From a virus: DNA of 64,000 bases. Both the position numbers and the translations under genes were made by a program. The stretch lies in the IMG/VR virus record IMGVR_UViG_3300037247_000847, positions 1-64,000 of that record. The stretch is one strand, 5' to 3'. The notes beneath the pieces were generated by a model that saw only the letters and a list, made by a program, of their open reading frames with translations, was not told where the DNA came from and searched no databases. Below are positions 4,199 through 20,052 of the stretch, piece by piece (the stretch's first letter is position 1; every line of letters begins with the position of its first letter).

Positions 4199-4218
4199 CC
4201 TTGTTTTACACCAGAGGA

Positions 4219-4287: not shown

Positions 4288-4297
4288 GATGACCTCC

Positions 4298-4986: not shown

Positions 4987-4987
4987 A

Positions 4988-5236: not shown

Positions 5237-5248
5237 AATCTCCTCCTA

Positions 5249-5317
5249 TTGGTTTATCTCATCAGTACTAGAATAACCAATTCTAGTAGACCAAGACTAC
5301 CTGTCTTGGTTTCGATA
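5249..5317 (-). ncRNA. type II hammerhead ribozyme HHR1
   Basis: TATC GAAA CCAAGAC aggta GTCTTG GTC^ TACTAGAA ttggtta TTCTAGTA CTGATGA GATA AACCAA; loop I pairs with the 3' tail; predicted cut 5289^5288. Confidence 0.95.
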
Positions 5318-5321
5318 CGGT

Positions 5322-5414
5322 TAGACCTATTTTAGGACCGCCTCCAAGGCCTGCAGACGAGGATTTGACCCTTCAAGGGTAAAAACCCTACCTAATTTAG
5401 TTTCGTTGGTCTAC
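5322..5414 (-). repeat. dispersed ~93-bp repeat, copy A
   Basis: Reverse complement matches 63133-63225 with 2 mismatches and 35711-35782 partially; contains the ACCCTTGAAGGGT palindrome. Confidence 0.9.
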
Positions 5415-5437
5415 AGACGGTCCTAGCCTGGTTTCGG

Positions 5438-5596
5438 TTATTTCTTCTTTTTACCTCTCATCAATCTCTCGTGCTCCCGCTGGAGCTTGTCGATCGCCTT
5501 TCGTTTTTGTGTAGCTTCATCCTTGACCCGACTACGATACCTCTTGTCGATCTTTGTCCAGAAGCGACGTTTGGCCTTGGTTTGTGCGGCGGTCAT
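5438..5596 (-). CDS. 52-aa basic protein MTAAQTKAKRRFW... (not in the ORF track)
   Basis: ATG overlaps the stop of the upstream ORF (ATGA); open to TAA at 5438. Confidence 0.55.
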   Translation of the reverse strand: MTAAQTKAKRRFWTKIDKRYRSRVKDEATQKRKAIDKLQREHERLMRGKKKK

Positions 5597-5865
5597 AATG
5601 TTTTATTCACTTCTTCAGCCTTTTTAAGTGCGTCAGCGTGTTCGCTCTCGACTGAGATACGGATTGCATTTAGCACTTCACCCACTGTCAATGTAGGCAG
5701 ATCGGCGATCATATCGATCGCACCTACGACTGCAGTAAGGGTTAGAATGTCGGCCTCGGGTTGCGGGACGTTATGGTACTCAGTGAGTTCGTGTGCCGCG
5801 CCTCGGATGCAGAGACGCACGGCCCCTTGTAACTCGTTGAGGATATGGTTATAGATTGGTAGCAT
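5593..5865 (-). CDS. hypothetical protein
   Basis: AGGAGGAG SD, preceded by HHR2. Confidence 0.75.
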   Translation of the reverse strand: MLPIYNHILNELQGAVRLCIRGAAHELTEYHNVPQPEADILTLTAVVGAIDMIADLPTLTVGEVLNAIRISVESEHADALKKAEEVNKTL

Positions 5866-5884
5866 TTTGATCTCCTCCTATATT

Positions 5885-5964
5885 TGAGATACCTCATCAG
5901 GCTGTAGTCTCTCATACTACAGCGACCACATATCAAGTAATACAACTTGATATGTGGTTTCGGC
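5885..5964 (-). ncRNA. type II hammerhead ribozyme HHR2
   Basis: GCC GAAA CCACATATCAAGT..ACTTGATATGTG GTC^ GCTGTAGT atgagag ACTACAGC CTGATGA GGT aTCTCA; cut 5924^5923. Confidence 0.93.
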
Positions 5965-6360
5965 TCAATCATGGGTAAATAGATCGTGTAGACGACGACG
6001 TAGTCTTTTCATTTTGCGTTTATTTGCTGCTTCCAGCCTCTTTTTAGTAGAGGGACTTAGTCTCTTTCTACGTGCCCTCCTATCTTGTTTCTCGTTGAAT
6101 ATCCTCCGACTTTTTGTGGTCCATGGAAGATGATTTGGACGTTTAGGTTTGTTGCTAACTACAGGTTCCTGTTCTACCCACTTTTTGGCACGACCCTTCC
6201 GCTTTTTTAGTCTAGGACCTTTTTTGATTAGCTTGCGAGGTCCTTTACCTCTTGGCCGTTTGATGGGTTTGACTTCAGCAGTGGTTTTGACACCATCAGC
6301 GATAGCTGGAGGACAATTCTTTACCTTAGTCTTTTTGGAGCGGGTGGACTTCTTAACCAT
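5965..6360 (-). CDS. very Lys/Arg-rich basic protein
   Basis: 131-aa ORF with AGGAGAGG SD; composition suggests nucleic-acid binding. Confidence 0.7.
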   Translation of the reverse strand: MVKKSTRSKKTKVKNCPPAIADGVKTTAEVKPIKRPRGKGPRKLIKKGPRLKKRKGRAKKWVEQEPVVSNKPKRPNHLPWTTKSRRIFNEKQDRRARRKRLSPSTKKRLEAANKRKMKRLRRRLHDLFTHD

Positions 6361-6377
6361 TTTCCCTCTCCTGATTT

Positions 6378-6686
6378 CTAAAGTTTTTCGATTAGAGTGA
6401 TGGGTGTAACGACGGCACCAAGTCCGGTAGCAACCTTAGTGATGGTTTCTTCTTGCTCACGTGGGCAGCGAATAAGAAGTGTGGATTGTTTTAAACCACC
6501 CATCCGCCGAAGGATCCCTTCAGCAGCAATCTTTGTCCAGTAAGGACAAGGCATGCCTCTAAGCCAATTAGATATCGAAGCTATATCCACGCCAAAAGCT
6601 TCGGCGATCTGCTGGGTAGTAAGACCAGTATCGCGAAGTTTTTGTAGATGCATGTTGGACTCAGCCTTCTTGTGGGTCTTAGTCAT
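6378..6686 (-). CDS. XRE/Cro-like helix-turn-helix protein
   Basis: GLTTQQIAEAFGVDIASISNWLRG HTH; preceded by HHR3. Confidence 0.8.
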   Translation of the reverse strand: MTKTHKKAESNMHLQKLRDTGLTTQQIAEAFGVDIASISNWLRGMPCPYWTKIAAEGILRRMGGLKQSTLLIRCPREQEETITKVATGLGAVVTPITLIEKL

Positions 6687-6700
6687 AATCTCCTCCTATG

Positions 6701-6768
6701 TGACTTGTCATCATCAGATACTAAGTAGTCATCTTAGTGTGACCAAGACTACCTGTCTTGGTTTCGAC
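6701..6768 (-). ncRNA. type II hammerhead ribozyme HHR3 (extra U after A9, one C-A mismatch in stem I)
   Basis: GTC GAAA CCAAGAC aggta GTCTTG GTC^ ACACTAAG atgacta CTTAGTAT CTGATGA t GAC aAGTCA; cut 6741^6740. Confidence 0.88.
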
Positions 6769-6769
6769 T

Positions 6770-7987
6770 TTAGTTTATCATCACCATTTCTCCAAATGGT
6801 ATTTCTCTTGCTCGACATTCAGCCGGAATGGTCCAGAGCACTGGAAAGGGTGGCGGAACCTTTGGGAATGATCCGTAAGTGTCAGTCAGATAGATCATAC
6901 CCTTTGGTGTGATACACCTTTCTTCTAACCAAGAGAAGGTTGGTAGAAAGCTTGTACTACCACCACCATAGGTACGTCCCGGCTTAATTGGTAGGTCTTC
7001 TTTACCATATTCGTCAACGTGCTGTACTTTCACATCCACGTACATGATGTGTAACTTACGGAACTTTAGCACGGAGGCGATCTTGGAGACCTCACCAAGA
7101 AATTGTGGGATGTAACGTAGCGTTGAGCCAGACGTATCTAGCACTACGACAAACTCATCTACACCTTCACTCTCAAGTCCTGGCAGGTATATGTCTTGAT
7201 TTAAGAAGCGGCGATCAGGTACTAACCAAGTGAAGTCATCCTGATTGCAGTTCTCCATGAACCTTTCGAGTACCTGTTCCCAACGGATCTTGGGGTTCAG
7301 GATCTCTTCGACTAGTTCATCGAGACTACCAGGTAGCTTCCCCTGAGCCTTGGCGAAGTTCATGGCTTGAGCAATTTGCATCAGGGCTTCAGCTTCATCA
7401 AAATCTGCACCTGATAAAGCTGCGGAAGATGGTTGAGAACCATTCTCGTTATAATCATCCTGGAGACCGGTGAGGCCGGTCTCCGGCTTTTGATCTTTCT
7501 GATCCTGATTTGGTTGTGAAGGATGATCGTGAAGACCACCGCATCCACAGCCTCCCTTTTCTTCGGCCTGCTTGTTGGCCGGATCATCAGGGTCTTGTGA
7601 TAGAATGTTGTAGATCTTCTCTGCATCCATCCCTCGGAACCGATCGTCAATCAGGTAATCGTCTCCTAATTTTAGACCGCTGTCCTGGAGATACAGATTG
7701 ATCCTGTAGTCACAGGCGATATTCCAGCGCTTGGGATCTCGAAGACCTCGACGGAAGCTGTCGAGGAACATCTTGTGTCCACCCTCGTGAGCAAGATCAG
7801 TGACGAGAATGGTCTCGTTCTGCTGCTCTACGTAGTCTGGATTGAAAAACAACCTAACTCCATCTGTCACCATCGTTTGGATAACAGTGGAGGGTTGTAT
7901 CTCAAAGCCCAATATTAGGCTTCCCCAGAAGGGATACATCCTAAGCAGCCTGGTTATGCACCTGTCGACTTTCATTTGTGCATTCAT
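6770..7987 (-). CDS. metallopeptidase-like plus vWA domain protein (DUF2201-like)
   Basis: TMVTDG..FNPDY, AHEGGH (HExxH), WNIACDYRIN, VLDTSGS MIDAS, GGGSTSF, YLTDTYG. Confidence 0.9.
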   Translation of the reverse strand: MNAQMKVDRCITRLLRMYPFWGSLILGFEIQPSTVIQTMVTDGVRLFFNPDYVEQQNETILVTDLAHEGGHKMFLDSFRRGLRDPKRWNIACDYRINLYLQDSGLKLGDDYLIDDRFRGMDAEKIYNILSQDPDDPANKQAEEKGGCGCGGLHDHPSQPNQDQKDQKPETGLTGLQDDYNENGSQPSSAALSGADFDEAEALMQIAQAMNFAKAQGKLPGSLDELVEEILNPKIRWEQVLERFMENCNQDDFTWLVPDRRFLNQDIYLPGLESEGVDEFVVVLDTSGSTLRYIPQFLGEVSKIASVLKFRKLHIMYVDVKVQHVDEYGKEDLPIKPGRTYGGGSTSFLPTFSWLEERCITPKGMIYLTDTYGSFPKVPPPFPVLWTIPAECRAREIPFGEMVMIN

Positions 7988-8003
7988 TTTCTCCTCCTAT
8001 ATT

Positions 8004-8077
8004 TGAGATGTCTCATCAGGTTGTAGTCTCTCACACCACAACGACCACGCCCCGTTTGCACGAGACGTGGTTTCGAC
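8004..8077 (-). ncRNA. type II hammerhead ribozyme HHR4
   Basis: GTC GAAA CCACGTCTCG tgcaaa CGGGGCGTG GTC^ GTTGTGGT gtgagag ACTACAAC CTGATGA GAC aTCTCA; G-U pairs form on this strand only; cut 8043^8042. Confidence 0.95.
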
Positions 8078-8084
8078 TTTAGTC

Positions 8085-8330
8085 TTAATTTGGTTCTTTG
8101 GAGGTAATGATCTCAGCGCAACGAGCTAGGGCATCGTCGGTCATTTCAATCATTGAACCCAGACGATGCCTTAGCACCAAGAGATCCTTAATTAGCAGTC
8201 TGGGCTTACCATATTTGGTCTTTTGGTAACACCGTTTTACAGCTTCAGTGACATCACTAGCTTGGTAAAAGAGACCTCCGCTGCTGGTAGTAAAATCACC
8301 GATTTTGTTGTCTAGTGTTCTCTTAGTCAT
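8085..8330 (-). CDS. hypothetical protein
   Basis: ATGA overlap with the upstream gene. Confidence 0.6.
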   Translation of the reverse strand: MTKRTLDNKIGDFTTSSGGLFYQASDVTEAVKRCYQKTKYGKPRLLIKDLLVLRHRLGSMIEMTDDALARCAEIITSKEPN

Positions 8331-9235
8331 GAGATGTAGCCCTTCATGGATTTCAGGATCGCGTCTGCCGATTTGGCAACCTCCTTGCGATACTTAGGAT
8401 CGTTTCTGAGAGCCTTTACATCGCTGACCGAACAGATTTCCTTTTCAGTCTGCTTGATCATCGCCGCGATCTTAGGATCGTTTAGGACGTTCAGCGATGG
8501 TAGAATTTCAACCAACTCCTGGATGTTACCGATCAACGAGTCCCTGAAGACCGCATCTTTCTCGTGCAGCTTCTCTTGAACGTGTCTCAGCTGTTCATAG
8601 AGACGTATGATTGGTGCCCGGAACGCGTCCTTCATATTGTTCTGGAAGTCTGCGAACATCTGCTTTTTGAGATCCTCAGAAGCATCCGCTGACATCTTGA
8701 CCCTAAAATCATTCGGGTCCTGGATAGGAGAAGTCCGGATGTGGATACCAAACTTGGTCCGGACCCGATTAGGTTCAGGATAGTCGTCTGCGTTGAACAT
8801 ATCACCGAGACCCTTTTTATAGTCTCCTAAACCAGCATGCCACTGTTCTTTGTACTCAGCAACAAACTCATCAGCGGCTTTCATGGCTTCGCGTTGCTTC
8901 TCCCCGATGACTTCCGTGTACTTGAAGTACATGTCAGCCGGAAGGAGACCAACTCCTTCCTCCCAAGGGAGCGTATAGTATTTGTGCAGCTTACGACACT
9001 GGCGGGACAGCTTTCTAAACGTGTCGAGAGCATCACTCTTGAGAAGTTGCTTGGTGAACTTCCCAAGCTCGGCATCTGAGTTCTTACTCTTTGCCACTTC
9101 CATAGCTATCTCACTGTCGTTCCGCTTGGCACCCCAACGGTTGATTTTGAGCCTAACGAGCATGGCTCGTGTACTCAGATCACTTGGGGTAGCCTTTGTC
9201 TTAGCTGACTTCGTGGTCTGCTTTGACTTACTCAT
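8327..9235 (-). CDS. DUF3150-like helical protein (usual partner of MoxR AAA and DUF2201)
   Basis: HKYYTLPW, LGDMFNADDYP, FRDSLIGNI..L..LNVLNDP pattern; gene context. Confidence 0.75.
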   Translation of the reverse strand: MSKSKQTTKSAKTKATPSDLSTRAMLVRLKINRWGAKRNDSEIAMEVAKSKNSDAELGKFTKQLLKSDALDTFRKLSRQCRKLHKYYTLPWEEGVGLLPADMYFKYTEVIGEKQREAMKAADEFVAEYKEQWHAGLGDYKKGLGDMFNADDYPEPNRVRTKFGIHIRTSPIQDPNDFRVKMSADASEDLKKQMFADFQNNMKDAFRAPIIRLYEQLRHVQEKLHEKDAVFRDSLIGNIQELVEILPSLNVLNDPKIAAMIKQTEKEICSVSDVKALRNDPKYRKEVAKSADAILKSMKGYIS

Positions 9236-9247
9236 AATCTCCTCCTA

Positions 9248-9315
9248 TTGGTTTGTCTCATCAGTGTCAAAGTAACCAACCTTGACAGACCTAGACTACC
9301 TGTCTAGGTTTCGAC
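9248..9315 (-). ncRNA. type II hammerhead ribozyme HHR5
   Basis: GTC GAAA CCTAGAC aggta GTCTAG GTC^ TGTCAAGG ttggtta CTTTGACA CTGATGA GAC aAACCAA; cut 9288^9287. Confidence 0.95.
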
Positions 9316-9318
9316 TTA

Positions 9319-9504
9319 CTACCACCTAGCAATATATTCTAAGATTGCCTTGTGTTTGGAGTTGAGGTTCAACACTATTGTTTCACTGGGTTTCTCATCA
9401 GTGAGACATTGACGACAGTCGATGCGTAATTCTACCTTGTCATTGGGATTGCACAACTCCATAGCGTCCCGCATTTCCTTTACGGTTGGCATATTGTTTT
9501 CCAT
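9319..9504 (-). CDS. hypothetical protein (CxxC)
   Basis: TAGGAGGAGATT SD identical to the neighbouring genes. Confidence 0.7.
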   Translation of the reverse strand: MENNMPTVKEMRDAMELCNPNDKVELRIDCRQCLTDEKPSETIVLNLNSKHKAILEYIARW

Positions 9505-9574
9505 AATCTCCTCCTATAGTCTTGATGCGATAGTGCATCACACAGCGCTCCTACCTGAAGCGCTGGTTGCCACA

Positions 9575-10693
9575 CTACAACATGTATTCTTGATTCTCCG
9601 TCGCCCATTGAACAAAAGCTGATGTTTCTAAGAGGCTGTTACCACGGTTCTTCACGAGAAGCATACCGAGGACTTCTACTGGCTTTTGGAACTTGTTGAT
9701 GAGTTCGACGAAGTTGTCCATTCGACCAGCATCGACGATGTCTGCCGTCGAAGTAACGAGAGCGAAGGCAACGTCAGGTCGCTGGGAAATTGGAGCAAGC
9801 CCAGCACTCACGACCTGTTTCGTTTGATCATTCCAAACATAACGCTCGAATGTCATGCCGTCGAGTGTGCTAGGATCATCGAGGATATCTTCGGGATCTG
9901 GCAGGTGAGCCCACAGCTTCAGAAAAGCTAGGAACTCAGTTGCGAAACCCTTGTCAGCTGCTCTCGAGATTAGCTCGAAGGCTGTACTCTCAGTGACAGC
10001 ACCTGAAGCCAGAAGCTGACCAACGTGATGCACCGTTCTTGGTGACCGGCTGTTTTCCAGTCCAGGCTTCGGACTAAAGTTCATCAGCATGTCCCGTTTC
10101 CAAGAGATGAATGCAGGCAAGATCGCTGGCATTGGTTCCTTGCGATCGAGCAGGCCAACATCATCGCACTGCGAAGCCCATTGCACCCAACTGTCAACAT
10201 TTACCTCTAGGTGAACGATGGTCTTGAACCTAGACTTGACATGCTCAAGGATCGGGTTGACGCCGGACTTGTCTTGGGCTCGGTTGGTTGCTGCACAGAT
10301 GCGAATATGATCACTAATTTTATTCTCGCCAATCTGACGAGCGTGGATTAGGTGACAAGTAGCATTCTGGGTAGCTGTCGAGCCTTGTCCAAAATCATCC
10401 ATGAAGAACACGGTTGGTTTCTTGGCCGTAACGAGCCGACGAAGATCGCCGATAGGAACGAAGTCCCACTCGGCTGGCTTCTTACCCGTTGCGGGCCGCG
10501 TCTGGGCTGGTATTCCACCGTAGTCGATTGGACTACGTACTGCTGGATGGGTGATGATAAGGTCCATCCCGACGTTCTTTGCCGCTTGCTCAATAAGGGC
10601 AGTCTTGCCGATGCCTGGCTCTCCTTCCGCTAGGAAGGATAACCCAGACTTGAACATGGTCTCGGCAAAGTTGATGAAATCTTGATAGTTCAT
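9575..10693 (-). CDS. MoxR-like AAA+ ATPase
   Basis: GEPGIGKT Walker A, FFMDDF Walker B, AATNR, SRF, SPRT; preceded by HHR6. Confidence 0.9.
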   Translation of the reverse strand: MNYQDFINFAETMFKSGLSFLAEGEPGIGKTALIEQAAKNVGMDLIITHPAVRSPIDYGGIPAQTRPATGKKPAEWDFVPIGDLRRLVTAKKPTVFFMDDFGQGSTATQNATCHLIHARQIGENKISDHIRICAATNRAQDKSGVNPILEHVKSRFKTIVHLEVNVDSWVQWASQCDDVGLLDRKEPMPAILPAFISWKRDMLMNFSPKPGLENSRSPRTVHHVGQLLASGAVTESTAFELISRAADKGFATEFLAFLKLWAHLPDPEDILDDPSTLDGMTFERYVWNDQTKQVVSAGLAPISQRPDVAFALVTSTADIVDAGRMDNFVELINKFQKPVEVLGMLLVKNRGNSLLETSAFVQWATENQEYML

Positions 10694-10705
10694 TTTCTCC
10701 TCCTA

Positions 10706-10773
10706 TTGGTTTGTCTCATCAGTGCCAAGATAACCAATCTTGACAGACCTAGGCTACCTGCCTAGGTTTCGAC
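10706..10773 (-). ncRNA. type II hammerhead ribozyme HHR6
   Basis: GTC GAAA CCTAGGC aggta GCCTAG GTC^ TGTCAAGA ttggtta TCTTGGCA CTGATGA GAC aAACCAA; compensatory changes relative to HHR5; cut 10746^10745. Confidence 0.95.
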
Positions 10774-10971
10774 TTATATCATTTCATCACCACCGTCGAT
10801 TCTCTTATAGTTAACTGGGTCATCGGTTTCGAGGGTGTGATACCCAGTAGGTTGTGTCCAAACCATGAAACGCGCCGCTGCGCTGCAGTGAGCTTCCAAC
10901 TCGGTAGCAAAACGTTGAGCATTACCCACTACTTCACCGTTTTGAAATTCAAACATTGGTCGGTACGACAT
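10774..10971 (-). CDS. hypothetical protein
   Basis: AGGAGGA SD; flanked by HHR7 and HHR6. Confidence 0.75.
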   Translation of the reverse strand: MSYRPMFEFQNGEVVGNAQRFATELEAHCSAAARFMVWTQPTGYHTLETDDPVNYKRIDGGDEMI

Positions 10972-10987
10972 AATCTCCTCCTATATT

Positions 10988-11054
10988 TGAGATGTCTCAT
11001 CAGGCCGTGAGCTCTCACCTCACAACAAGCGGGGTTACTCACCCCACTTTCGAC
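10988..11054 (-). ncRNA. type II hammerhead ribozyme HHR7 (CUU triplet; overlaps the end of the upstream CDS)
   Basis: GTC GAAA GTGGGGT gagta ACCCCG CTT^ GTTGTGAG gtgagag CTCACGGC CTGATGA GAC aTCTCA; cut 11027^11026. Confidence 0.85.
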
Positions 11055-11635
11055 TTTTTGGTTAAACGCTTCCTGCGTTTGGTAGGTTGTATATCGGCAA
11101 GATGTCTGCGCCGCTTTGGCTTAAAGAGCTGATATTGCCGTGAACTCGGCTTTTCAACATCACCTTTTTGCACCATGTTTTTTAGGCAGCGACGTGCTTC
11201 TCTTGTTTCTAGCCCTGTCTTTTTGCAGACTTGACCTACAGTGGTAGCACCATTCTTCAAAGCAGCGAGTATCAGTTCGCTGTGCGCTGATTGTGTAATC
11301 CCTTTACGTATTTTTCTGCCTTGGCGTTGGTCTAGCCGTTCTCGTCGTTCTGATTTTCTTAGATCACGCAATACTTTATGATGCCGAGCGCGTTTGGCTC
11401 GACCTCTCATTTCTTTTTGGGTGTCCTCACGATCTCTTTGCGCTTGTTTTCTCTCCTGATCTAGTTCGGCCCAGGATTCCTTGTGACGCTTCCACCGCTT
11501 CTTTGTCCACCGTTTGCGGTCTAAAAGCTTTGGTAGTGGGTAGTTGCTGAGGTACTCATTAGCCTCTTTGACCCTCAAGGCAACAGGACCTAGCTCTTTG
11601 GTGCTAGAAAGATGTTTCCTGATTCGAGTAGGCAT
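11039..11635 (-). CDS. basic protein with C-terminal winged-helix domain
   Basis: LILAALKNGATTVGQVCKKTGLETREARRCLKNMVQKGDV wHTH; AGGTGAGG SD. Confidence 0.75.
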   Translation of the reverse strand: MPTRIRKHLSSTKELGPVALRVKEANEYLSNYPLPKLLDRKRWTKKRWKRHKESWAELDQERKQAQRDREDTQKEMRGRAKRARHHKVLRDLRKSERRERLDQRQGRKIRKGITQSAHSELILAALKNGATTVGQVCKKTGLETREARRCLKNMVQKGDVEKPSSRQYQLFKPKRRRHLADIQPTKRRKRLTKKSKVG

Positions 11636-11650
11636 TAGATGTCCTCACCT

Positions 11651-11869
11651 TTATTTGGAGCGTTTCGATTTTTTCTCAGGCTCTTTCTTTTGATTTACAC
11701 CAATACACTTGTCAGCCTCAGCCTTGGTGGTAAAGCGTTCCCGTAATGGGTTCATAGTGTCTTTCGTATTGTGTACCTGGTATCCGAAGATCATACTAGG
11801 ATCTTTGGTGTGTGAATGCTTGACCACCTTCAGGCCTTTTTCCTTATTGTGGCTTACCGTTGTCAACAT
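11651..11869 (-). CDS. hypothetical protein
   Basis: AGGAGGA SD, preceded by HHR8. Confidence 0.7.
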   Translation of the reverse strand: MLTTVSHNKEKGLKVVKHSHTKDPSMIFGYQVHNTKDTMNPLRERFTTKAEADKCIGVNQKKEPEKKSKRSK

Positions 11870-11881
11870 AATCTCCTCCTA

Positions 11882-11968
11882 TTGGTTTGTCATCATCAGT
11901 GTCAAAGTAACCAACTTTGACAGACCCGGCGTATTCTTGTTAGTGGTCTTTTCTAACCGGGTTTCGAC
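11882..11968 (-). ncRNA. type II hammerhead ribozyme HHR8 (enlarged loop III, extra U after A9)
   Basis: GTC GAAA CCCGG [27 nt] CCGG GTC^ TGTCAAAG ttggtta CTTTGACA CTGATGA t GAC aAACCAA; cut 11923^11922. Confidence 0.88.
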
Positions 11969-11970
11969 TT

Positions 11971-12342
11971 TCACACGAAGACGATGATAGGTTGTCCTGT
12001 TGGTAACATGACAGGATCAGATTGTGATTCGCCATAGGACTCAGCGTAGGAGTTCTCGTACATACCATATTTGATAGGAACGCGAACGTGCCCTGGTCGG
12101 GTCTTCCAGGTTTTAGGTTTGCCCGATACACGACATTCTCTAACATCCCCAAATCGATCAAGGAACGTAAGAACGTAACCAGGACGCAGGTTTTGAGCTT
12201 CACCTACGATCATGAAGCGGTATTCTTGATACCCATCGAACCGTGGTGGGTAATACCCTGATTTGGCTTGCATCGTTTTCGTCCTCTCACGTATGTGCGT
12301 AACCATCTTCCTCAATACCAATCCACATTTTCTGCCATTCAA
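11971..12342 (-). CDS. hypothetical protein (start may be internal)
   Basis: ORF in the early operon; CRVSGKPKTWKTRPGHVRVPIKYG motif. Confidence 0.65.
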   Translation of the reverse strand: MNGRKCGLVLRKMVTHIRERTKTMQAKSGYYPPRFDGYQEYRFMIVGEAQNLRPGYVLTFLDRFGDVRECRVSGKPKTWKTRPGHVRVPIKYGMYENSYAESYGESQSDPVMLPTGQPIIVFV

Positions 12343-12511
12343 TCATGATGCATGTATCACCGAAAGCAAATGTGGAGCGCGAAAGAAATTCGTCGAACGT
12401 TTCGTTGGTGTAGTAGTTACGGGTCCTGAGTTCGCTGACTGCTACACGACCGTCTTCCATGGGTTGGCGTTGAAAAATCTCGAACAGGGTCTCGTGCTGT
12501 TGCGGGGTCAT
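12287..12511 (-). CDS. hypothetical protein, first gene of the early operon
   Basis: AGGAGGAG SD, preceded by HHR9; ends MWIGIEEDGYAHT. Confidence 0.75.
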   Translation of the reverse strand: MTPQQHETLFEIFQRQPMEDGRVAVSELRTRNYYTNETFDEFLSRSTFAFGDTCIMIEWQKMWIGIEEDGYAHT

Positions 12512-12524
12512 GGTCTCCTCCTAT

Positions 12525-12601
12525 TAGTCTATCTCATCAGTGTCAGGAGACTATTCCTGACAGACCAGGGTAGGTGATTGCTCACCTACCCTGATTTCGA
12601 T
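12525..12601 (-). ncRNA. type II hammerhead ribozyme HHR9
   Basis: ATC GAAA TCAGGGTAGGTGA gcaa TCACCTACCCTG GTC^ TGTCAGGA atagtc TCCTGACA CTGATGA GAT aGACTA; GNRA loop III; cut 12563^12562. Confidence 0.93.
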
Positions 12602-13020
12602 TTATAGGAGGAGGAGATTTTTTCCCAACCGGGATAGTCCACTTACGAAGTGGAGGGTAACACCCTACGCGCTGCACGTGACCAATTTTCTTGTACTCGT
12701 TCCACCCCGTTGCGGTTCAAAGCGTTATACCACTTGGGGTAGCCATCGGCCTAGGTCCAGTATTGTTGCCCGTTAATGCTGGATTGACTACCAGCGGCGG
12801 TCAGCAGACAACCCGGACTAAGGTCTCTGGGGATCGTTCCACGTGTGCTTACGCAGGTTCACCCGGCTGACAGCGACTTCGCGGGAATTCCTTTCCCATC
12901 GCTGGGCCTCCTGGGGGTTCCGGCTATCCTCGCCACTACGCGTGAGGGGTGAGCTTTGCGCTTCTTCTCCCAGGGCCGCCCCATTCCCAGAGGCCTGGAT
13001 AACTAAATTCTTATCTAACT
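12602..13020 (-). ncRNA. candidate ~420-nt structured leader RNA of the early operon
   Basis: No convincing ORF; GC-rich with many hairpins; lies between a promoter and HHR9. Confidence 0.5.
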
Positions 13021-13731: not shown

Positions 13732-14274
13732 ATGGAGAAGATAAAGTTCAATCTCCCACTCTTGGAGCGTCTAGCTATGTTGGGTATGCCTGATAAGGAC
13801 ATTGCTAAGGCACTAGATATTAAACCAGCCAGGTTTAGTAAATATAAAAAGAAGCACTCTTCTATCAGGGCGACACTGCGGAAGGGTCGAATAATATCAT
13901 CAGCTAATGTAGTGGAGTCTCTCTACAAGAAAGCGAATGGTTTTTCGGTTCCTGAGGAGAAGTTGTTCTATAGTGCCAAGTACAATAGAGTGGTAAGAGC
14001 TAATACCCGAAAGTATTATCCACCTGACACTGTTGCTCAGATATTCTGGCTGAAAAACAACTTCCCAGATTTCTGGCGTGATAAGAAGGAGGTAGAGAAT
14101 ACTGGTGGTGTTGGAACAATTCAATCAGTGAAGTTCATATTGGTTCAGCCAGGAACGTCAGGTGAAAAGAGTGAAAAAGTAATTGATGGAGATTTCAAGA
14201 TACTTCCAGGAGCTGGACAAGAGGGGAGAGAACAGCAAGCTGGGTCTGGTAATACGAGTAAGGAAGTAGAATAA
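13732..14274 (+). CDS. terS: terminase small subunit (HTH type)
   Basis: LAMLGMPDKDIAKALDI HTH, VVESLYKKANG, PPDTVAQIFWLKN motifs; start reassigned to ATG 13732. Confidence 0.8.
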   Translation: MEKIKFNLPLLERLAMLGMPDKDIAKALDIKPARFSKYKKKHSSIRATLRKGRIISSANVVESLYKKANGFSVPEEKLFYSAKYNRVVRANTRKYYPPDTVAQIFWLKNNFPDFWRDKKEVENTGGVGTIQSVKFILVQPGTSGEKSEKVIDGDFKILPGAGQEGREQQAGSGNTSKEVE

Positions 14275-14957
14275 TGGGAGATAACCTAGGACGACGACGT
14301 GAGTTTACTTTTTTACCAGATAGTGAGATTGTTAAGACTATGTCTGAGACTATTTTAGTAGTAGGACAAAAGGCTGCTAACCCACCAGTGATGCCAAAAC
14401 CTGATCGCTTTGCTCTGTCCTTAAAAGTTGTGCGGCGTTGGGAAGGTGGTCTAGTTGATCACCCTTCTGACCCTGGTGGTATTACCAAGTGGGGCATTTC
14501 ACTGCGCTTCCTCCGTGCTATTGGTATTGATATTAACGGTGACGGTGTAATTGATGGTAGAGACATTAGGTCTTTGAATGAGAAGCAGGTTGAGAAGCTC
14601 TATCACGATCACTTCTGGTCAAAGTGTCATTGTGATTTTCTACCTGCTGGTGTTGATCTTGCTGTATTCGATTGTGGAGTGAACCAAGGACCAAACCGTG
14701 CGAAGGGGTTCCTCCAGAAAGCTTTGAAAGTCAAGGTTGATGGAAGAGTTGGTCCTATTACGCTCGCTGCTGTTGATAAGGCTGATCCTGCTGAGTTGTT
14801 GGGTGAGTTCATGGTCAGACGAGCTGTACACTATTCTGGTCTAGTAAACATGACCATATTTGGTCTAGGTTGGTTTAGGAGGATCTTTGATATTTACCGA
14901 GAAGCATTGGCTGTATTGAATACTAGTGATAATTTAACAGAAGAGGTGTTGAAATGA
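14274..14957 (+). CDS. endolysin, glycoside hydrolase family 108 with peptidoglycan-binding domain and a portal-derived N-terminal extension
   Basis: WEGGLVDHPSDPGGITKWGIS, FDCGVNQG, DGRVGPITL, FGLGWFRR. Confidence 0.9.
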   Translation: MGDNLGRRREFTFLPDSEIVKTMSETILVVGQKAANPPVMPKPDRFALSLKVVRRWEGGLVDHPSDPGGITKWGISLRFLRAIGIDINGDGVIDGRDIRSLNEKQVEKLYHDHFWSKCHCDFLPAGVDLAVFDCGVNQGPNRAKGFLQKALKVKVDGRVGPITLAAVDKADPAELLGEFMVRRAVHYSGLVNMTIFGLGWFRRIFDIYREALAVLNTSDNLTEEVLK

Positions 14958-15418
14958 CTATAGTGGATGGAATTGCGCGGGATATTGAGAGTATATTTGA
15001 TAGTATCACATCAGATAGGGAGGGATGGGAGCTAATATCTGCGCTACAAGAGGTTGTCGAGGCCCAGGTGAAAAGGGTCGAGGAGAAGGCGTGCGGTAAA
15101 TTCTCCAATCCAGCGAGTGTGAAGTCCTGCTGTCGAGCTACTGTAGTGAAAATAAAAAAGTTTAGTTGTGCTGAGTTGAGAGAAGGTGACGAGATAGTTT
15201 GTGATGACTGTGATGGGCAGATGGTTTGGCGTGAGGGAGCTTGGAGCGTAAATGATCAACGAAGCCGAGCTATGAGATCTTTTACCTGTGATTATAATAT
15301 TGGTGGTGGAGGTGATCCGTGTTGGGTTCAGAGAGGACAAGAATTTGTTTGGAGCCCTTGGTCGGAGGGTTTTCGCTATTGTGTACCACATTTTAAAGAA
15401 ATCTTAAGTGAAGATTAG
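14954..15418 (+). CDS. Cys-rich hypothetical protein
   Basis: ATGA overlap, GAGG SD, several CxxC-like clusters. Confidence 0.65.
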   Translation: MTIVDGIARDIESIFDSITSDREGWELISALQEVVEAQVKRVEEKACGKFSNPASVKSCCRATVVKIKKFSCAELREGDEIVCDDCDGQMVWREGAWSVNDQRSRAMRSFTCDYNIGGGGDPCWVQRGQEFVWSPWSEGFRYCVPHFKEILSED

Positions 15419-15435
15419 AGTAGGAGAATTGGAAA

Positions 15436-15750
15436 ATGACTGATAAATATATGACAGCAACTGAAGTACAAGTCAGGATGAAGGAATCACTCAAACGTTT
15501 TCCAACTCCTAATTTTAATGGTATAATAAATGATATTGCCAGGAGATTACGACGGATAGCTCTTCAAGATGCATTACAAGGTTCATCTCAAGATCGTTTG
15601 AATTATTGTTTCGGTAGAGCAACTGCAAAACCAATTACTGATTTAGCATGTTATGGTACAGCTGTGTATGATCCAAACAAGCTGAGTGAATTGGCTATCA
15701 GGTGGTTCATACGTCTAGAGCGTTTGGCTCGGGGAAAAACAAAATGTTAG
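15436..15750 (+). CDS. small protein made of portal-like motifs
   Basis: MTATEV..R.KE and DL..YGTAV match the portal at 32072-33757. Confidence 0.7.
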   Translation: MTDKYMTATEVQVRMKESLKRFPTPNFNGIINDIARRLRRIALQDALQGSSQDRLNYCFGRATAKPITDLACYGTAVYDPNKLSELAIRWFIRLERLARGKTKC

Positions 15751-15995
15751 AATTTACTCGTCGAAAGTTTATGTGTTTAACTCCAGTCTCAATTGGGGCA
15801 GTTGCTTTGGGAGCTGTGGTTCTGCCGGAGATCACTCCACCGAAACGTAAAGTTACTGAGGCGATGTTAATCGCTGGTCAAAAGGCTGCTAATCCTCCTT
15901 TAATATATGGGCCAAATACTTTCTCAGGTGGTGTTTCATACACCGACTTTGAAAAGATTGGTGATCAATTGTTCTCTAGGGGAGAACTAGAATAA
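15744..15995 (+). CDS. small protein with twin-arginine-like N-terminus and a portal-like motif
   Basis: TRRKFM plus hydrophobic stretch, then LIAGQKAANPP...NTFSGGVSY.D. Confidence 0.7.
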   Translation: MLEFTRRKFMCLTPVSIGAVALGAVVLPEITPPKRKVTEAMLIAGQKAANPPLIYGPNTFSGGVSYTDFEKIGDQLFSRGELE

Positions 15996-15998
15996 ACA

Positions 15999-17252
15999 AT
16001 GGATCTGAGTATTAAGGTTGCAGAGATATTTAGACCTCTCCTGTCTCCGTCAAGATACAAAGGTGCACACGGCGGACGAGGGTCAGGTAAGAGCCATTTC
16101 TTTGCAGGAACTGCAGTCGCACTCTGTATACAATCTCCTGGGTCTCGCATCGTCTGTGCACGAGAGGTTCAGCGATCATTGAGAGACAGTGTAAAACTTC
16201 TCGTCGAGGACAAGATAAGAGAGTTTGGAGTTGAGAATCATTTCAAGATCATGTACGATCATATCAGAACTCCAGGACAGGGTCTGATCGTCTTTCAGGG
16301 ACTACAGGATCATACAGCAGAGAGTATTAAATCTTTAGAAGGATTTGACGCTGCATATTTAGAAGAGGCTCACACGATCACCAAGAGATCTCTTGAGCTA
16401 CTTCGACCAACGATCCGGAAGCCTGGATCTCAGATATGGGCGTCTTGGAACCCAAGACTAGCGACTGATCCAATCGATACACTGTTGAGAGGAGAGTTCC
16501 CTCCTCCTAGCTCGATTGTCGTCAAGGCAGACTGGAGAGACAATCCCTGGTTCCCTGAGTCTTTAGAGGAGGAGCGATCCTACGACGAGATAGTCAATCC
16601 AGTGCGTTATGCTCATATTTGGGAGGGTGAGTACGAACCACAAGTCGTCGGTGCACTCTGGAACCGAGAGATGATCATAGCAGGGAGGGTGAATGCTCCT
16701 CCTCATCTCAAGAGAGTTGTGATTGGGGTTGACCCTCCTACATCGTCTGAGGAGGATGCAGATGAGTGTGGGATCATTGCTGTAGGTTTAGGTGATGACG
16801 GACATGGTTATGTTCTAGCTGATGAAAGTATTCAAGGTAAACCTGAAACTTGGGCGAGACGTGTTGTAGCTCTCCATGATATACTCGAAGCTAATACTGT
16901 TGTAGCAGAGGTGAATCAGGGTGGGGATATGGTTGAACATACGATTCACTCTGTTAGAAAGGCTGTTAGGGTCATTAAGGTTCGTGCGATTAAAGGTAAG
17001 GTTCTGAGAGCAGAACCTATCAGTGCTCTTTATTCATTAGGGAGAATTCATCACGTTGGATCCTTCCCCAAACTCGAAGGTCAGATGTGTCAGATTACCT
17101 CAGATGGATATCACGGTAATGGATCGCCGGATCGTGTTGATGCTATGGTATATGGATTAACTAATTTGTTTGGACCTATGACGCGTCGTCCTCTCCCTCC
17201 AGGAGCTTCAAGACCTAGTCGAACGGTAGCAAGAGCTGGAATGAGGGTGTGA
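15999..17252 (+). CDS. terL: terminase large subunit (PBSX-like ATPase plus RNase H-like nuclease)
   Basis: HGGRGSGKS Walker A, AYLEEA Walker B, SWNP, IGVDP, EVNQGG, SPDRVDA. Confidence 0.95.
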   Translation: MDLSIKVAEIFRPLLSPSRYKGAHGGRGSGKSHFFAGTAVALCIQSPGSRIVCAREVQRSLRDSVKLLVEDKIREFGVENHFKIMYDHIRTPGQGLIVFQGLQDHTAESIKSLEGFDAAYLEEAHTITKRSLELLRPTIRKPGSQIWASWNPRLATDPIDTLLRGEFPPPSSIVVKADWRDNPWFPESLEEERSYDEIVNPVRYAHIWEGEYEPQVVGALWNREMIIAGRVNAPPHLKRVVIGVDPPTSSEEDADECGIIAVGLGDDGHGYVLADESIQGKPETWARRVVALHDILEANTVVAEVNQGGDMVEHTIHSVRKAVRVIKVRAIKGKVLRAEPISALYSLGRIHHVGSFPKLEGQMCQITSDGYHGNGSPDRVDAMVYGLTNLFGPMTRRPLPPGASRPSRTVARAGMRV

Positions 17253-17446
17253 TGATTAGATCTAAATGTTATAGACATATTTGGACTAAGCTGGTTGCAA
17301 CGGTGATATCACCAGTGTATCGAGAGGATGGGATGATAATTACTCGTCCAAATGTGAGATGTAAGTTTTGTAATGTTAGTTATGATAAGTATTTCAGTGT
17401 CTCTCGGTCTGATGATGATCTTCCTCGTGATACTCTAACAAATTGA
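17249..17446 (+). CDS. hypothetical protein (CxxC)
   Basis: GTGA overlap with terL. Confidence 0.5.
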   Translation: MMIRSKCYRHIWTKLVATVISPVYREDGMIITRPNVRCKFCNVSYDKYFSVSRSDDDLPRDTLTN

Positions 17447-17453
17447 GGTGTAG

Positions 17454-17648
17454 GTGGTGTCAATAGGGAAACGTAGTGGTATGAAGTTTATTGCTGAGGT
17501 AAGTAAGAGGGGTAAGTTGTTAGTGTATGAAGATCTTATTTTTGTTATTCGACCTAATTGTCCTATTTGTGAATTAACTGCTGATGGGCTCAGAGAGATA
17601 AACTATGTGCCTCCAAGCTTACTCGCTCATGTTGAGTATGTGTTATAG
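17454..17648 (+). CDS. small protein with tail-tubular-B-like N-terminal motif
   Basis: GAGGT SD; KRSGMKFIAEV resembles RRPGTRFVAEV of 51701-55324. Confidence 0.55.
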   Translation: MVSIGKRSGMKFIAEVSKRGKLLVYEDLIFVIRPNCPICELTADGLREINYVPPSLLAHVEYVL

Positions 17649-17762
17649 TGTACTTGCAGTATGCTCCAGTGGATGTTGTGAAGAGGGAGCATTTTTCACT
17701 AACAGAGTGTTAATCCTAACGTGTGCGTGTGAGCGCGTGCGTAAGGGAGAACTAGGAGGAGA

Positions 17763-17975
17763 GTGATTATGAGGTTGTTTTTCTTTCACAGATATTCTTG
17801 GGACAACTGCGCAATTAGTCTCGCAGGAGGATTTGATTTACGAGTTCTGAAGTGGTGGTTCACCTTTGTACCAAAAGCAATCAAATGGAGTAGACCGAGT
17901 TATTGGTATGTGTCGCGTGATGCTACTCCTAAGACATCTATTGTAGGTAGTCGCTGCAGATATTGGTCGCCGTAG
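17763..17975 (+). CDS. hypothetical protein
   Basis: AGGAGGAG SD before GTG. Confidence 0.55.
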   Translation: MIMRLFFFHRYSWDNCAISLAGGFDLRVLKWWFTFVPKAIKWSRPSYWYVSRDATPKTSIVGSRCRYWSP

Positions 17976-18223
17976 AGCCTAGACCTATTTTTAGACCCAC
18001 TAGGACATACTGTAGACCAACTTCTTACCTCAGAATAGGGTATTCGCCCTTGAAGTCGTCGTCGTTGGTCTACGTCATGTCCTAGAGCTGTATAGTTAAT
18101 TGTGGAGTGTAGAGAGCACTTGTGGTTGCGGGATGCTCGTAAGCACGGCGGATGAGGCGGCGTCACTGGCATCGCAGCTTTCGGTTTCGGACGTATCCGA
18201 GTTGTCAGATCCACAGTTACTTC

Positions 18224-18312
18224 AAGTCGTCGTAAGTCGGCGCCACTGGCGTGTTCTGATGTGGTCTGGTCTGGTCAGCCTTGAAGTCGCAAGTCGTCGT
18301 CGCAAGTCGGCA
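18224..18312. repeat. clustered AAGTCG(TCG) repeats
   Basis: AAGTCGTCGTAAGTCGG...AAGTCGCAAGTCGTCGTCGCAAGTCGG in the convergent intergenic region. Confidence 0.55.
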
Positions 18313-18379
18313 CCCTATCCAGGATCCGTATGCGTATAAGAATAACCAGTTAACGTAAGCGACGCGCCAAAATGCGGGC

Positions 18380-18418
18380 AAAGAAAAACCCCACGAAGCT
18401 TTCGCCGCGTGGGGTTTC
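18380..18418 (-). terminator. intrinsic terminator
   Basis: Minus strand GAAACCCCACG cggcgaaagctt CGTGGGGTTTTTCTTT. Confidence 0.8.
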
Positions 18419-18423
18419 AAGGT

Positions 18424-18738
18424 TTAGCCACCTTTCCCTTCATCCATTTCGGCTTTCAGGACGAGGCAGAAGTAGGAAATTGCATCATACCACATTCCGT
18501 AGGTGGTAAGAACCGTTTCCATTTCGACGTTCTTGACGACTTTTCCATCGATGACGTAAACTTCGCGTACCGTAACACGGCCAGGGTCTTCTAGCTTTTC
18601 ACCTTCGACCATTATTAACGCCTGACCTTCTTCAATATCCAGCGGAATATTAGCAAGGCCTGGATCGTTTTCGTAAACTAGCCGTGGTTCGCAATACGGA
18701 TTTTGGATATCAATCATGTAGTAGTATCGGGTTTCCAT
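18424..18738 (-). CDS. acidic hypothetical protein, candidate immediate-early gene
   Basis: AAGGGG SD; followed by a terminator. Confidence 0.7.
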   Translation of the reverse strand: METRYYYMIDIQNPYCEPRLVYENDPGLANIPLDIEEGQALIMVEGEKLEDPGRVTVREVYVIDGKVVKNVEMETVLTTYGMWYDAISYFCLVLKAEMDEGKGG

Positions 18739-18756
18739 AGCGTTTCCCCTTTCGGG

Positions 18757-18786
18757 AAAAGAAGGGGCGGCGCTAACCGCCCCTTC
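18757..18786 (-). terminator. intrinsic terminator/attenuator
   Basis: GAAGGGGCGG ttagcg CCGCCCCTTC TTTT. Confidence 0.75.
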
Positions 18787-18806
18787 AAAGGTTTCGGGGA
18801 AACTAT

Positions 18807-19175
18807 CTAGCTAAGGCTTACCCGACCTTGCGAAATTTGCGCCCGGATAAACTTTCGCCGCCCGCGAAACCCCTTCGCCTTTTGCGCCGCCAAACAAGCG
18901 GAAACCGTTTGGCCGGTTTTGAAACAAGGCGCGCGGGAAGGGATTTCTTTTCCCTTCAATACGCGAAGCTTCGAATCGTTACCAAAATCGGAAAGGGCTT
19001 TTCCGCCGCCGGTACGGACTTTTCCGTTTGTCCTACCGTTAGCCTTAGAAGCCTTGCGACCCTTCGAAGTCTTGCGGGAAGCCTTGGCGGTCCGCTTAAC
19101 GGCCTTGCGGCCCCTTTGCGCCTTTGCCTTCGCCTTGGAAGGCTTGCGGGTTTCGGTTTTGGTTTTGGTAGTCAT
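18807..19175 (-). CDS. Lys/Arg/Ala-rich histone-like protein, candidate immediate-early gene
   Basis: 122-aa ORF after a strong promoter and GAAAGG SD; followed by a terminator. Confidence 0.75.
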   Translation of the reverse strand: MTTKTKTETRKPSKAKAKAQRGRKAVKRTAKASRKTSKGRKASKANGRTNGKVRTGGGKALSDFGNDSKLRVLKGKEIPSRAPCFKTGQTVSACLAAQKAKGFRGRRKFIRAQISQGRVSLS

Positions 19176-19348
19176 AACAAACGCCTTTCGTAAGCCCGAA
19201 AGAAGTACGAAACGCCAAGGCCGGATTAAAACCGGGCAAGGCTTCGCCTTTTGTAACGGGCGGTATCAAATCGGAAATCCGCGGGTTTCGCCTTTGGCCC
19301 TACTACGGGTAAATCGCCGGGTACCTTTGGGCCGATTTGATAAATAAA

Positions 19349-19377
19349 ATACTACGCCCTAATTTGATTTTTTGCAA
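19349..19377 (-). promoter_or_regulatory. sigma70-type promoter
   Basis: TTGCAA-17 nt-TAGTAT. Confidence 0.8.
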
Positions 19378-19460
19378 GGGGATAGTGGATTTATTCGCGT
19401 ATTTTTGACATTTTATCGAAGGCGTATATTCGGGACTTTCGAAAGTTTTCCCTTTAGAAA

Positions 19461-19504
19461 TGGCGTGGCGTGGCCTGGCGTGATGTGGGATGGAATGGCG
19501 TGGA
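19461..19504. repeat. degenerate TGGCG pentamer tandem repeat followed by a G-run; candidate genome-terminus region
   Basis: TGGCG TGGCG TGGCC TGGCG TGATG TGGGA TGGAA TGGCG TGGA, then GGGGGGGCGGG. Confidence 0.6.
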
Positions 19505-19701
19505 TCCGGCCGCGAAAGTCGATGGGGGGGCGGGCTGCACGATGCCTCACTGATTTCCGTCTACCCAAATGCTAATGAAACCATCATCAGAAAACACTCC
19601 TTGGATCATAGTGAAAAGACAACCGCTAAGTCCAAATTTTTTGGAGATCCAGTGATAAGGAGACTGTATACGTCCCTAGGAATAGAATAGGAGCCTAACC
19701 C

Positions 19702-19911
19702 ATGGAACGACAATCAGTGTCTTCGTCCAATCTCTCGTCCGTAGGTTACGACGAGAGTACCGAAACCTTGGAAGTGCAGTTTCAAAATGGCTCTGTGTTT
19801 CAGTATCACGATGTACCGGCAGAAACCCACGGACAGCTAGTAAATGCTAGGTCGGTAGGGAGTTTCTTCAGCAGCAACATAAGAAATTCCTTTGCACACT
19901 CCAAACTCTAA
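19702..19911 (+). CDS. KTSC domain protein
   Basis: VSSSNLSSVGYD...LEVQF.NG..YHDVP...SVGSFF.NIR. Confidence 0.9.
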   Translation: MERQSVSSSNLSSVGYDESTETLEVQFQNGSVFQYHDVPAETHGQLVNARSVGSFFSSNIRNSFAHSKL

Positions 19912-19926
19912 ACACAGGAGATAAAT

Positions 19927-20052
19927 ATGCCACAACATCCAGGTTCCGGGGGACGTCCAAAGCCGAGACCAAAACCTGTCAAGAAACCGAAGCCTTTTTA
20001 TGCAGGTGATTGGGTAGATAAATTAAACGAAGCTATCGTGAAGAAATCATAA
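19927..20052 (+). CDS. 41-aa peptide carrying a major-capsid motif (not in the ORF track)
   Basis: AGGAG SD; MPQHPGSGGRPKPRPKPVKKPKPFYAGDWVDKLNEAIVKKS; TAATG coupling to the next gene. Confidence 0.75.
   Translation: MPQHPGSGGRPKPRPKPVKKPKPFYAGDWVDKLNEAIVKKS

Follow-up and report, generated by a model that had tools for sequence, protein, structure and literature searches.

The window analysed here comprises bases 1–64000 of IMG/VR virus record IMGVR_UViG_3300037247_000847, a 95,947-bp podovirus-like phage record with 127-bp direct terminal repeats, to which cultured phages are only distant relatives. Our subject is a group of small genes around the large terminase gene which carry short pieces of the phage's own virion proteins, and above all the gene at 15744–15995, a member of a family of small proteins with a predicted twin-arginine translocation (Tat) leader. 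A first-pass annotation had proposed that at least five genes in this interval, including the endolysin gene, carry copied portal, capsid and nozzle motifs and may serve as decoys for bacterial immune sensors or as dominant-negative or assembly-tag peptides. The locus contains the following genes and features, to which a further open reading frame (ORF) at 19927–20052 is added below.

Stop at 14274: small terminase subunit
14274–14957, plus strand: endolysin with GH108 and PG_binding_3 domains (PF05838, E 3e-24; PF09374, E 5e-9; PHROG 315 endolysin)
14313–14387, plus strand: portal-derived patch in the endolysin N-terminus, corresponding to portal residues 289–313 (first stem helix and start of the clip)
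14954–15418, 15436–15750 and 15744–15995: three small ORFs
15999–17252, plus strand: large terminase subunit (Pfam Terminase_3 and Terminase_6C; PHROG 3717)
17454–17648, plus strand: small ORF without a supported virion motif

The small ORFs were compared with all 153 candidate ORFs of the genome by short-peptide BLAST, with 100 shuffles of each small ORF (900 in all) as a control, and no shuffle scored above 29.5 bits. Three matches lie well over this level, namely those of the endolysin to the portal (58.3 bits), of ORF 15744–15995 to the portal (48.1 bits) and of ORF 19927–20052 to the major capsid protein (44.3 bits). The comparison with shuffled controls which the first-pass annotation had suggested as a check thus gave three matches that exceed every shuffle. 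True paralogs aside, these are the sole short significant matches in the genome-wide all-against-all comparison, and a six-frame search of non-coding and out-of-frame DNA found no more virion-gene fragments. The observation behind the annotation is largely real: three of the five genes are solid, one is recovered at the level of its protein family and one is rejected. The donor genes and the segments copied from them, here or in related small proteins of other phages, are given below.

32057–33757, plus strand: T7-type portal (PHROG 332, E 6e-103; PDB 8ck0, E 3e-49)
32903–33103, plus strand: portal donor segment, residues 283–349 (loop, first stem helix, clip)
Portal residues 387–403: further portal donor site
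35952–36875, plus strand: major capsid protein (PHROG 3437 major head protein; PDB 9eg4)
36216–36254, plus strand: capsid donor motif, residues 89–101 (beta-strand motif)
Capsid residues 12–43: second capsid donor site, in the N-terminal helix, used by other family members
51054–51674: adaptor
51701–55324, plus strand: nozzle, or tail tubular B (PHROG 376, E 4e-184)
54857–54898, plus strand: nozzle donor motif, residues 1053–1066 (family matches to E 1.5e-6)

The endolysin bears an N-terminal extension of 50 residues; the start of its gene and the stop of the small terminase gene overlap. Residues 14–38 are identical to portal residues 289–313 at 19 of 25 positions (E 7e-12; shuffles at most 26.9 bits), and the underlying DNA at 14314–14387 is 89% identical to positions 32922–32995 of the portal gene. 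The claim that most copies differ from their donors at synonymous positions holds for ORFs 19927–20052 and 15744–15995 and fails for this patch, where eight base changes fall in six codons and every one is a replacement. The 13 residues before the patch (14274–14312) include Arg-Arg-Arg-Glu-Phe-Thr-Phe, and Pro-Pro-Val-Met follows it. The endolysin N-terminus could therefore resemble a Tat family member without the hydrophobic region, such as the variant P0001 described below, a likeness which could also be due to chance.

ORF 19927–20052 encodes 41 residues, rich in Pro and Lys, behind its own ribosome-binding site, with the capsid motif in the C-terminal half (19996–20034). Residues 24–36 are identical to capsid residues 89–101 at 12 of 13 positions (shuffles at most 25.7 bits), and relative to 36216–36254 there are ten base changes, amounting to seven synonymous codons and one replacement. 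The capsid proteins of the relatives L005, L084 and L086 keep this motif. The patch has an Asp-to-Asn change which is also present in the Tat family members P0028 and P0039, where the motif is C-terminal, and is absent from the capsid proteins of four phages. This common change suggests that the capsid patch circulates within the pool of small genes under constraint. No small homologs of ORF 19927–20052 were found elsewhere.

The two remaining candidates fared differently. ORF 15436–15750, for which several portal motifs had been claimed, encodes a conserved 104-residue protein with 17 homologs at 61–74% identity, in which the TATE residues do not vary. Its N-terminus is similar to the tunnel loop and valve helix of the portal, and residues 68–77 form a second, weak portal-like motif. 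Taken alone, the ORF matches the portal at 23.5 bits, within the shuffle range; the likeness stands by family profile only, when 18 sequences are aligned with the portal alignment by hhalign (portal 389–405, P 0.0013; 136–145, P 0.0056). The homologs P0005, P0011 and P0014 and that of the relative L089 carry an extra N-terminal copy of portal residues 270–292 (E 2e-6). No cultured phage carries a homolog, and a protein atlas search gave no lead for this ORF. As for the tail tubular B motif attributed to ORF 17454–17648, we had to discard it, since the best match to 51701–55324 has an E value of 38 and the best score genome-wide (18.9 bits) lies under the shuffle mean of 21; the sole hint for this ORF comes from family member P0030, which it matches weakly (E 0.08).

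The most informative of these genes is ORF 15744–15995, whose start overlaps the stop of ORF 15436–15750 and whose end lies 4 nt before the large terminase gene. Its product of 83 residues begins with a twin-arginine leader (residues 1–28, positions 15744–15827), and residues 21–77 are homologous to portal 283–349, that is, to the stem helix and clip. The direct match covers portal residues 300–336, where 31 of 42 core bases are identical and the differences are mainly synonymous, while the family profile aligns with portal 283–349 at an hhalign probability of 97% (E 8e-11). The ORF has three close homologs, and a profile of its family searched against 1.84 billion representative proteins retrieved at least 34 related clusters of 65–113 residues, with mutual identity below 50%, which keep the leader and the stem-helix motif. 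This is the only small-gene family with clear selective constraint.

Both arginines of the leader are invariant in 34 of 34 clusters and the Phe that follows is kept in at least 90%; the ORF reads Thr-Arg-Arg-Lys-Phe-Met against the Tat consensus Ser/Thr-Arg-Arg-x-Phe-Leu-Lys. The TIGR01409 Tat model matches 27 of the 34 members (best E 4e-5) and the Rieske Tat model PF10399 matches 25 (best E 4e-6; E 0.0012 for ORF 15744–15995 itself). The hydrophobic region has a mean Kyte-Doolittle value of 1.59 over 16 residues and, judged by eye, is followed by an Ala-x-Ala-like site in under half of the members.

Behind the leader, the tails consist of different segments of 8–40 residues in an order that differs from member to member. 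Most members have the portal stem-helix motif and many the clip motif; the second stem helix of the portal is found in P0026, its tunnel loop and valve helix in P0052, and a portal N-terminal motif in P0003 and P0039. The capsid N-terminal helix appears in at least five members, and the 13-residue capsid motif ends P0028 and P0039. Nozzle residues 1053–1066 occur in six members, all from other phages and none among the small genes of the window, and weaker nozzle donor sites lie at residues 67–93, 472–493, 519–525 and 711–717. In P0045, nozzle, portal and capsid segments follow one another without spacers, and segments abut without non-conserved flanks in P0045, P0049, P0052 and P0028. The capsid and nozzle motifs common to several members are in frame, forward and trimmed to the conserved core. 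The claim that such genes are assembled from copied portal, capsid and nozzle motifs is therefore borne out, and more broadly than had been proposed.

In order to identify the donors, the parts of the family past residue 28 were compared with this genome after removal of the patch-bearing ORFs, with 20 shuffles. At E ≤ 0.01 the tails matched the portal 17 times, the capsid 4 times, the nozzle 5 times and no other protein, against shuffle means of 0, 0, 0 and 0.25, respectively; the retrieval profile includes the portal stem motif, and therefore the portal count is biased, while the capsid and nozzle counts are not. At E ≤ 1, matches to other proteins were at the level expected from shuffles (22 versus 21.5). 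No terminase-derived segments were found in the family tails, though the terminase is well conserved.

An AlphaFold2 model of the portal monomer, of low confidence in this region, shows the canonical order of a helix (292–309), the clip (310–360), a second helix (361–380), a loop and a 40-residue helix (391–430). In T7 the corresponding elements are alpha7 and alpha9 of the stem, the clip and the valve helix alpha10 (PMC6702177; boundaries from PMC13483052); it is thus the first stem helix and clip that ORF 15744–15995 copies. The T7 clip contacts neighbouring subunits and is the part which the adaptor grips, and the terminase has been suggested to dock similarly (PMC6702177). The portal donor sites map onto the stem, clip and valve helix, which form the channel and docking site. 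The product of ORF 15744–15995 is a portal derivative, not a portal: only about 57 residues align to the portal, PF12236 (Head-tail_con) is touched weakly by 4 of the 34 members, the wing-stem-clip-crown fold of about 500–570 residues is lacking, and the AlphaFold2 model has no compact fold, being mostly unfolded save for the leader helix and a stem-like helix (predicted local distance difference test score 63). We also rejected a decayed second portal gene as the source of the pieces, since the motifs are out of portal order, the ORFs are intact and translationally coupled, and an intact terminase gene lies between them.

These data show an undescribed family of proteins which, by sequence, consist of a predicted Tat signal or signal-anchor followed by a largely unstructured mosaic tail of virion-protein segments, and we regard this description, together with the origin of the tails, as highly probable. 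In the literature that we searched, we found no description of phage proteins built from the phage's own virion motifs behind an export signal. No second leader-bearing gene was found in the genome. In the window the gene immediately precedes that of the large terminase; the L092 member, which has no clip segment, is followed directly by the adaptor and nozzle genes. Among the other members, P0015 is encoded on a contig of 34.8 kb and P0008 on one of 13.3 kb. A viral contig collection searched with the small-protein families returned portals only or nothing, and two metagenome scans for relatives gave nothing and one 1.4-kb contig, respectively.

The closest comparison for the locus is L089 (JAAKFP010000055.1), the one contig that a search of a genome collection gave, which is 9.7 kb long and encodes a large terminase with 87% identity to that of the window. 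Across the terminase interval the two sequences form a mosaic of conserved blocks (79–95% DNA identity) and complete replacements, which fall at the following positions of the window.

14283–14375, 14960–15421, 15724–15998, 17259–17757 and 19996–20034: stretches replaced or differing in L089

L089 has neither ORF 14954–15418 nor ORF 15744–15995, at whose position it carries a hydrophobic ORF of 36 residues. The endolysin patch is also missing, with a zinc-ribbon-like ORF of 70 residues instead, and all that is kept there is a match of 11 of 12 bases between the portal and L089 sequences at the 3' junction, a microhomology. Its homolog of ORF 19927–20052 stops just short of the capsid motif. 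G001, the metagenome-assembled genome into which L089 is binned, is labelled Chlamydiae. As no portal gene is present in it, the placement either gives a weak hint of the host or results from erroneous binning. A 1-kb insertion at L089 positions 6547–7603 is absent from the window.

L089 in turn has a piece which the window lacks. At the 5' end of its homolog of ORF 15436–15750 there is a 48-nt portal-derived insert, 89% identical to window positions 32876–32930, which lies between the two copies of a 21-nt direct repeat (L089 1028–1048 and 1097–1117) and shows 3–4 bases of microhomology at each junction; the window preserves the empty site. The portal tracts of the window and of L089 meet within one and the same stretch of 9 bases in the portal gene. 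The target duplication and junction microhomology support the view that the pieces arise by short templated insertions through template switching. Replication or repair would switch template at a few bases of microhomology, copy 40–75 nt of a virion gene and return to the original template, at times duplicating the target, and the pieces would afterwards be shuffled among family members. A retroelement or diversity-generating retroelement was rejected as the source, as the genome has no RVT_1 match and the differences between copies are not adenine-specific. The alternative raised by the first-pass annotation, recurrent capture of gene fragments, is thus partly right, given the patches missing from L089 and the L089 insert with its target duplication. 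Whatever the function of the genes, such junctions record templated insertion with target duplication in phage genomes, a process which makes new coding sequence out of existing genes.

The strongest pointer to function is the predicted export signal. Any function proposed for the family has to explain why every donor belongs to the mature virion, why the gene lies in a late operon and why it is dispensable and fast-evolving. We envisage that late in infection the peptide enters the periplasm, as the leader predicts, where it would display copies of virion surfaces conjectured to line the DNA channel and the inside of the capsid and so bait proteins ejected by incoming related phages, with the result that a second phage is excluded or a signal adjusts the timing of lysis. 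As a specific role, a periplasmic bait of this kind is our preferred though tentative suggestion, and we would not expect it to prove right in this form. The wider notion of Tat-exported, modular, fast-evolving self-mimic peptides, which would bind what incoming related virions deliver and act in kin-directed superinfection exclusion or in superinfection sensing that tunes lysis, we likewise consider unlikely. The composite explanation, in which description and origin are joined with function, is plausible and yet falls somewhat short of an even chance.

Several points weigh against export and a role in the periplasm. Known exclusion genes are usually early or prophage-expressed, and this gene lies in the late operon; it is also dispensable, as its absence from the close relative L089 shows. 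What enters the periplasm on ejection does not include the portal, capsid or nozzle itself, and therefore the bait idea requires that ejected proteins bind to the copied segments. The Tat profile score of ORF 15744–15995 is 18.6 bits against a curated cut-off of 24 bits, with no NCBIfam hit, and a near-identical variant, P0001, has no hydrophobic region. The ORF also has no Ala-x-Ala cleavage site, so that by analogy with Rieske proteins its product may stay anchored in the membrane. Finally, the donor counts have to be read with the bias towards the portal in mind, and the family tails were compared with the virion proteins of this phage rather than with those of each member's own phage, a cross-phage comparison which detects conserved donor segments only.

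The alternatives differ mainly in whether the peptides leave the cytoplasm and in whether the copied pieces matter at all. The pieces could be neutral by-products, filler DNA left at repair junctions in an indel hot spot around the terminase and tolerated in frame, as one would gather from the absence of the endolysin patch, of 14954–15418, of 15744–15995 and of the capsid patch in L089, from the L089 insert with its 21-nt duplication and microhomology, from the lack of visible purifying selection in the endolysin patch (six of six changed codons are replacements) and from the absence of small homologs of ORF 19927–20052. We nevertheless think this improbable as a general account, because it does not predict a leader and stem-helix motif kept in 34 clusters below 50% identity, capsid and nozzle motifs that recur core-trimmed, in frame and forward in several members, a capsid patch with seven synonymous changes to one replacement whose derived residue is common to family members, or a donor set of just three virion proteins. 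Since the leader and stem motif are kept, trimmed motifs recur and there are only three donors, purely neutral scars are unlikely for the Tat family, in which we infer that selection keeps the pieces. The endolysin and 19927–20052 patches are lineage-specific and may be neutral, because they are absent from L089 and the endolysin changes are replacements only.

Among functional alternatives, the peptides might remain in the cytoplasm and modulate assembly or packaging by copying subunit interfaces and docking sites; they could cap or chaperone subunits not yet assembled, poison assembly in competing phages, or take bound partners along to the membrane by Tat hitchhiking. The copied stem helix and clip do contact subunits and dock the adaptor in T7, perhaps also the terminase (PMC6702177), the gene immediately precedes the large terminase gene in the window and the adaptor gene in L092, and a protein such as P0001 without a hydrophobic region would remain cytoplasmic; but the invariant twin-arginine signal argues for leaving the cytoplasm, the L092 member adjoins the adaptor gene yet has no clip segment, and an assembly-blocking peptide would hurt the phage's own virions most, so that we give this reading a small chance. 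A smaller one still goes to a role in lysis control, as a membrane protein like a class III holin or an antiholin with a periplasmic tail, whose virion segments are incidental or sense superinfection. It would account for a single N-terminal hydrophobic helix followed by a hydrophilic tail 0.8 kb downstream of the endolysin, where no holin was identified nearby and no match to a holin family appeared in Pfam or PHROGs, and for the hydrophobic 36-residue ORF at the same position in L089; moreover, the endolysin patch and ORF 15744–15995 are present together in the window and absent together in L089. However, holins normally have no Tat consensus signals, the L092 member lies among tail genes rather than lysis genes, and the capsid and nozzle motifs are left unexplained.

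Cytoplasmic decoys that occupy the portal and capsid sensors Avs4, CapRel and Lit, as the first-pass annotation had it, seem to us the least probable of the readings considered. In favour of this reading, all three donors are known sensor triggers, of which the copied segments are the best-conserved parts; Avs families sense the portal, capsid and nozzle, and Lit and CapRel read short capsid motifs (PMC13581612). The export signal, which is predicted to put the peptides outside the cytoplasm, nevertheless makes the fit poor, as do the recognition of whole folds over large interfaces by Avs rather than of short peptides (PMC13581612), the largely unfolded model of the peptide, the likelihood that a free motif would trigger Lit or CapRel as readily as block it, and the absence of the patches from L089.

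A functional family would represent a new way of making accessory proteins, in which pieces of structural proteins are recycled behind an export signal, and possibly a means by which related phages compete or lysis is controlled. The copied segments would then mark surfaces of the portal, capsid and nozzle whose interactions are important outside the assembled particle. A practical consequence for annotation is that short portal-like or capsid-like matches in small ORFs are not necessarily pseudogenes.

Other features of the genome were noted in passing. Minus-strand genes occupy the left part of the window, and between them lie copies of a repeat family of about 85 nt, among which two type II hammerhead ribozymes reach the Rfam gathering score (10705–10774 and 12523–12602, both on the minus strand). 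A second dispersed repeat family, of about 100 nt and 82–98% identity, occurs in both orientations and is mostly intergenic.

167–12342, minus strand: minus-strand genes
5232–5315, 6683–6767, 9232–9314, 10689–10772, 11867–11914 and 12508–12541: copies of the ~85-nt repeat
5313–5416, 35686–35783 and 63117–63226 of the window, and genome positions 65285–65399, 75417–75511 and 87863–87970: copies of the ~100-nt repeat

A tRNA-like gene lies at 2049–2124 on the minus strand (Rfam tRNA score 48 bits), with its anticodon left undetermined by ARAGORN. A lysine-rich, histone-like protein of 122 residues is encoded at 18807–19175 on the minus strand; it is kept in L089 (5224–5604) and has no PHROG match. 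Between the portal and capsid genes, an exact 35-nt repeat at 34645–34739 encodes a Glu-Glu-Lys-Gly repeat near the N-terminus of a 365-residue protein (34572–35669), which is probably the scaffold. Candidate internal virion proteins are encoded at 56744–57262 (PHROG 418) and, judged by position only, at 57290–60778 and 60784–62649. A sugar-modification island lies within the structural block (41784–49953) and includes an aminotransferase, a nucleotide-sugar epimerase and three paralogs of about 290–340 residues (47196–49953). Beyond the window, the minus-strand genes at genome positions 73090–74271 and 89537–90532 are paralogs in which long runs of Asp/Glu alternate with Lys-rich runs, and DNA repeats are common to both loci.

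Comparison with known systems places the family between several of them. The leader resembles Tat signals, in particular the uncleaved anchor of Rieske type (TIGR01409/PF10399), in its Ser/Thr-Arg-Arg-x-Phe-Leu motif, in its moderately hydrophobic stretch of about 16 residues and in the Ala-x-Ala-like site of some members, and most members match the profiles. The passenger of Tat proteins, however, is a folded cofactor enzyme, whereas here it is a mostly unstructured string of virion segments, 45–80 residues long, encoded by a phage in a late operon, and its export is predicted from sequence. T4 Imm and Sp and HK97 gp15 are envelope-located superinfection exclusion proteins. P22 SieA and the Ltp lipoproteins belong to the same class; they are small, reside in the inner membrane or periplasm and act on the apparatus by which incoming phages deliver their DNA (PMC10883804, PMC3952083). 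The likeness to our family is one of logic and not of sequence, with an exclusion role here being conjectural; for none of these proteins is an origin from copied structural proteins of the same phage known, and their genes are early or prophage-expressed. In T4 lysis inhibition, the antiholin RI senses superinfection in the periplasm and carries a signal-anchor-release domain. As is predicted for the product of ORF 15744–15995, RI is a small phage protein with a periplasmic domain, encoded near lysis genes, and the family would potentially respond to superinfection as well, but there is no homology and the signal-anchor-release domain stands in place of a Tat signal.

The Gol peptide of the T4 capsid, recognised by Lit, and the capsid segment recognised by CapRel are, like the family's segments, short stretches of capsid protein, and they are active alone (PMC13581612). 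Those motifs lie within the capsid protein and trigger suicide of the host in the cytoplasm, whereas the motifs of the family are encoded by genes of their own, behind a predicted export signal. With regard to origin, short donor tracts are copied into an acceptor gene in templated insertion, in copy-choice switching and in pilin antigenic variation, and tract copying is seen here as well, together with microhomology and target duplication; no dedicated recombinase or reverse transcriptase for it was found in the genome. In cassette systems the tracts come from silent cassettes, whereas here they come from essential virion genes, and from several unrelated proteins.

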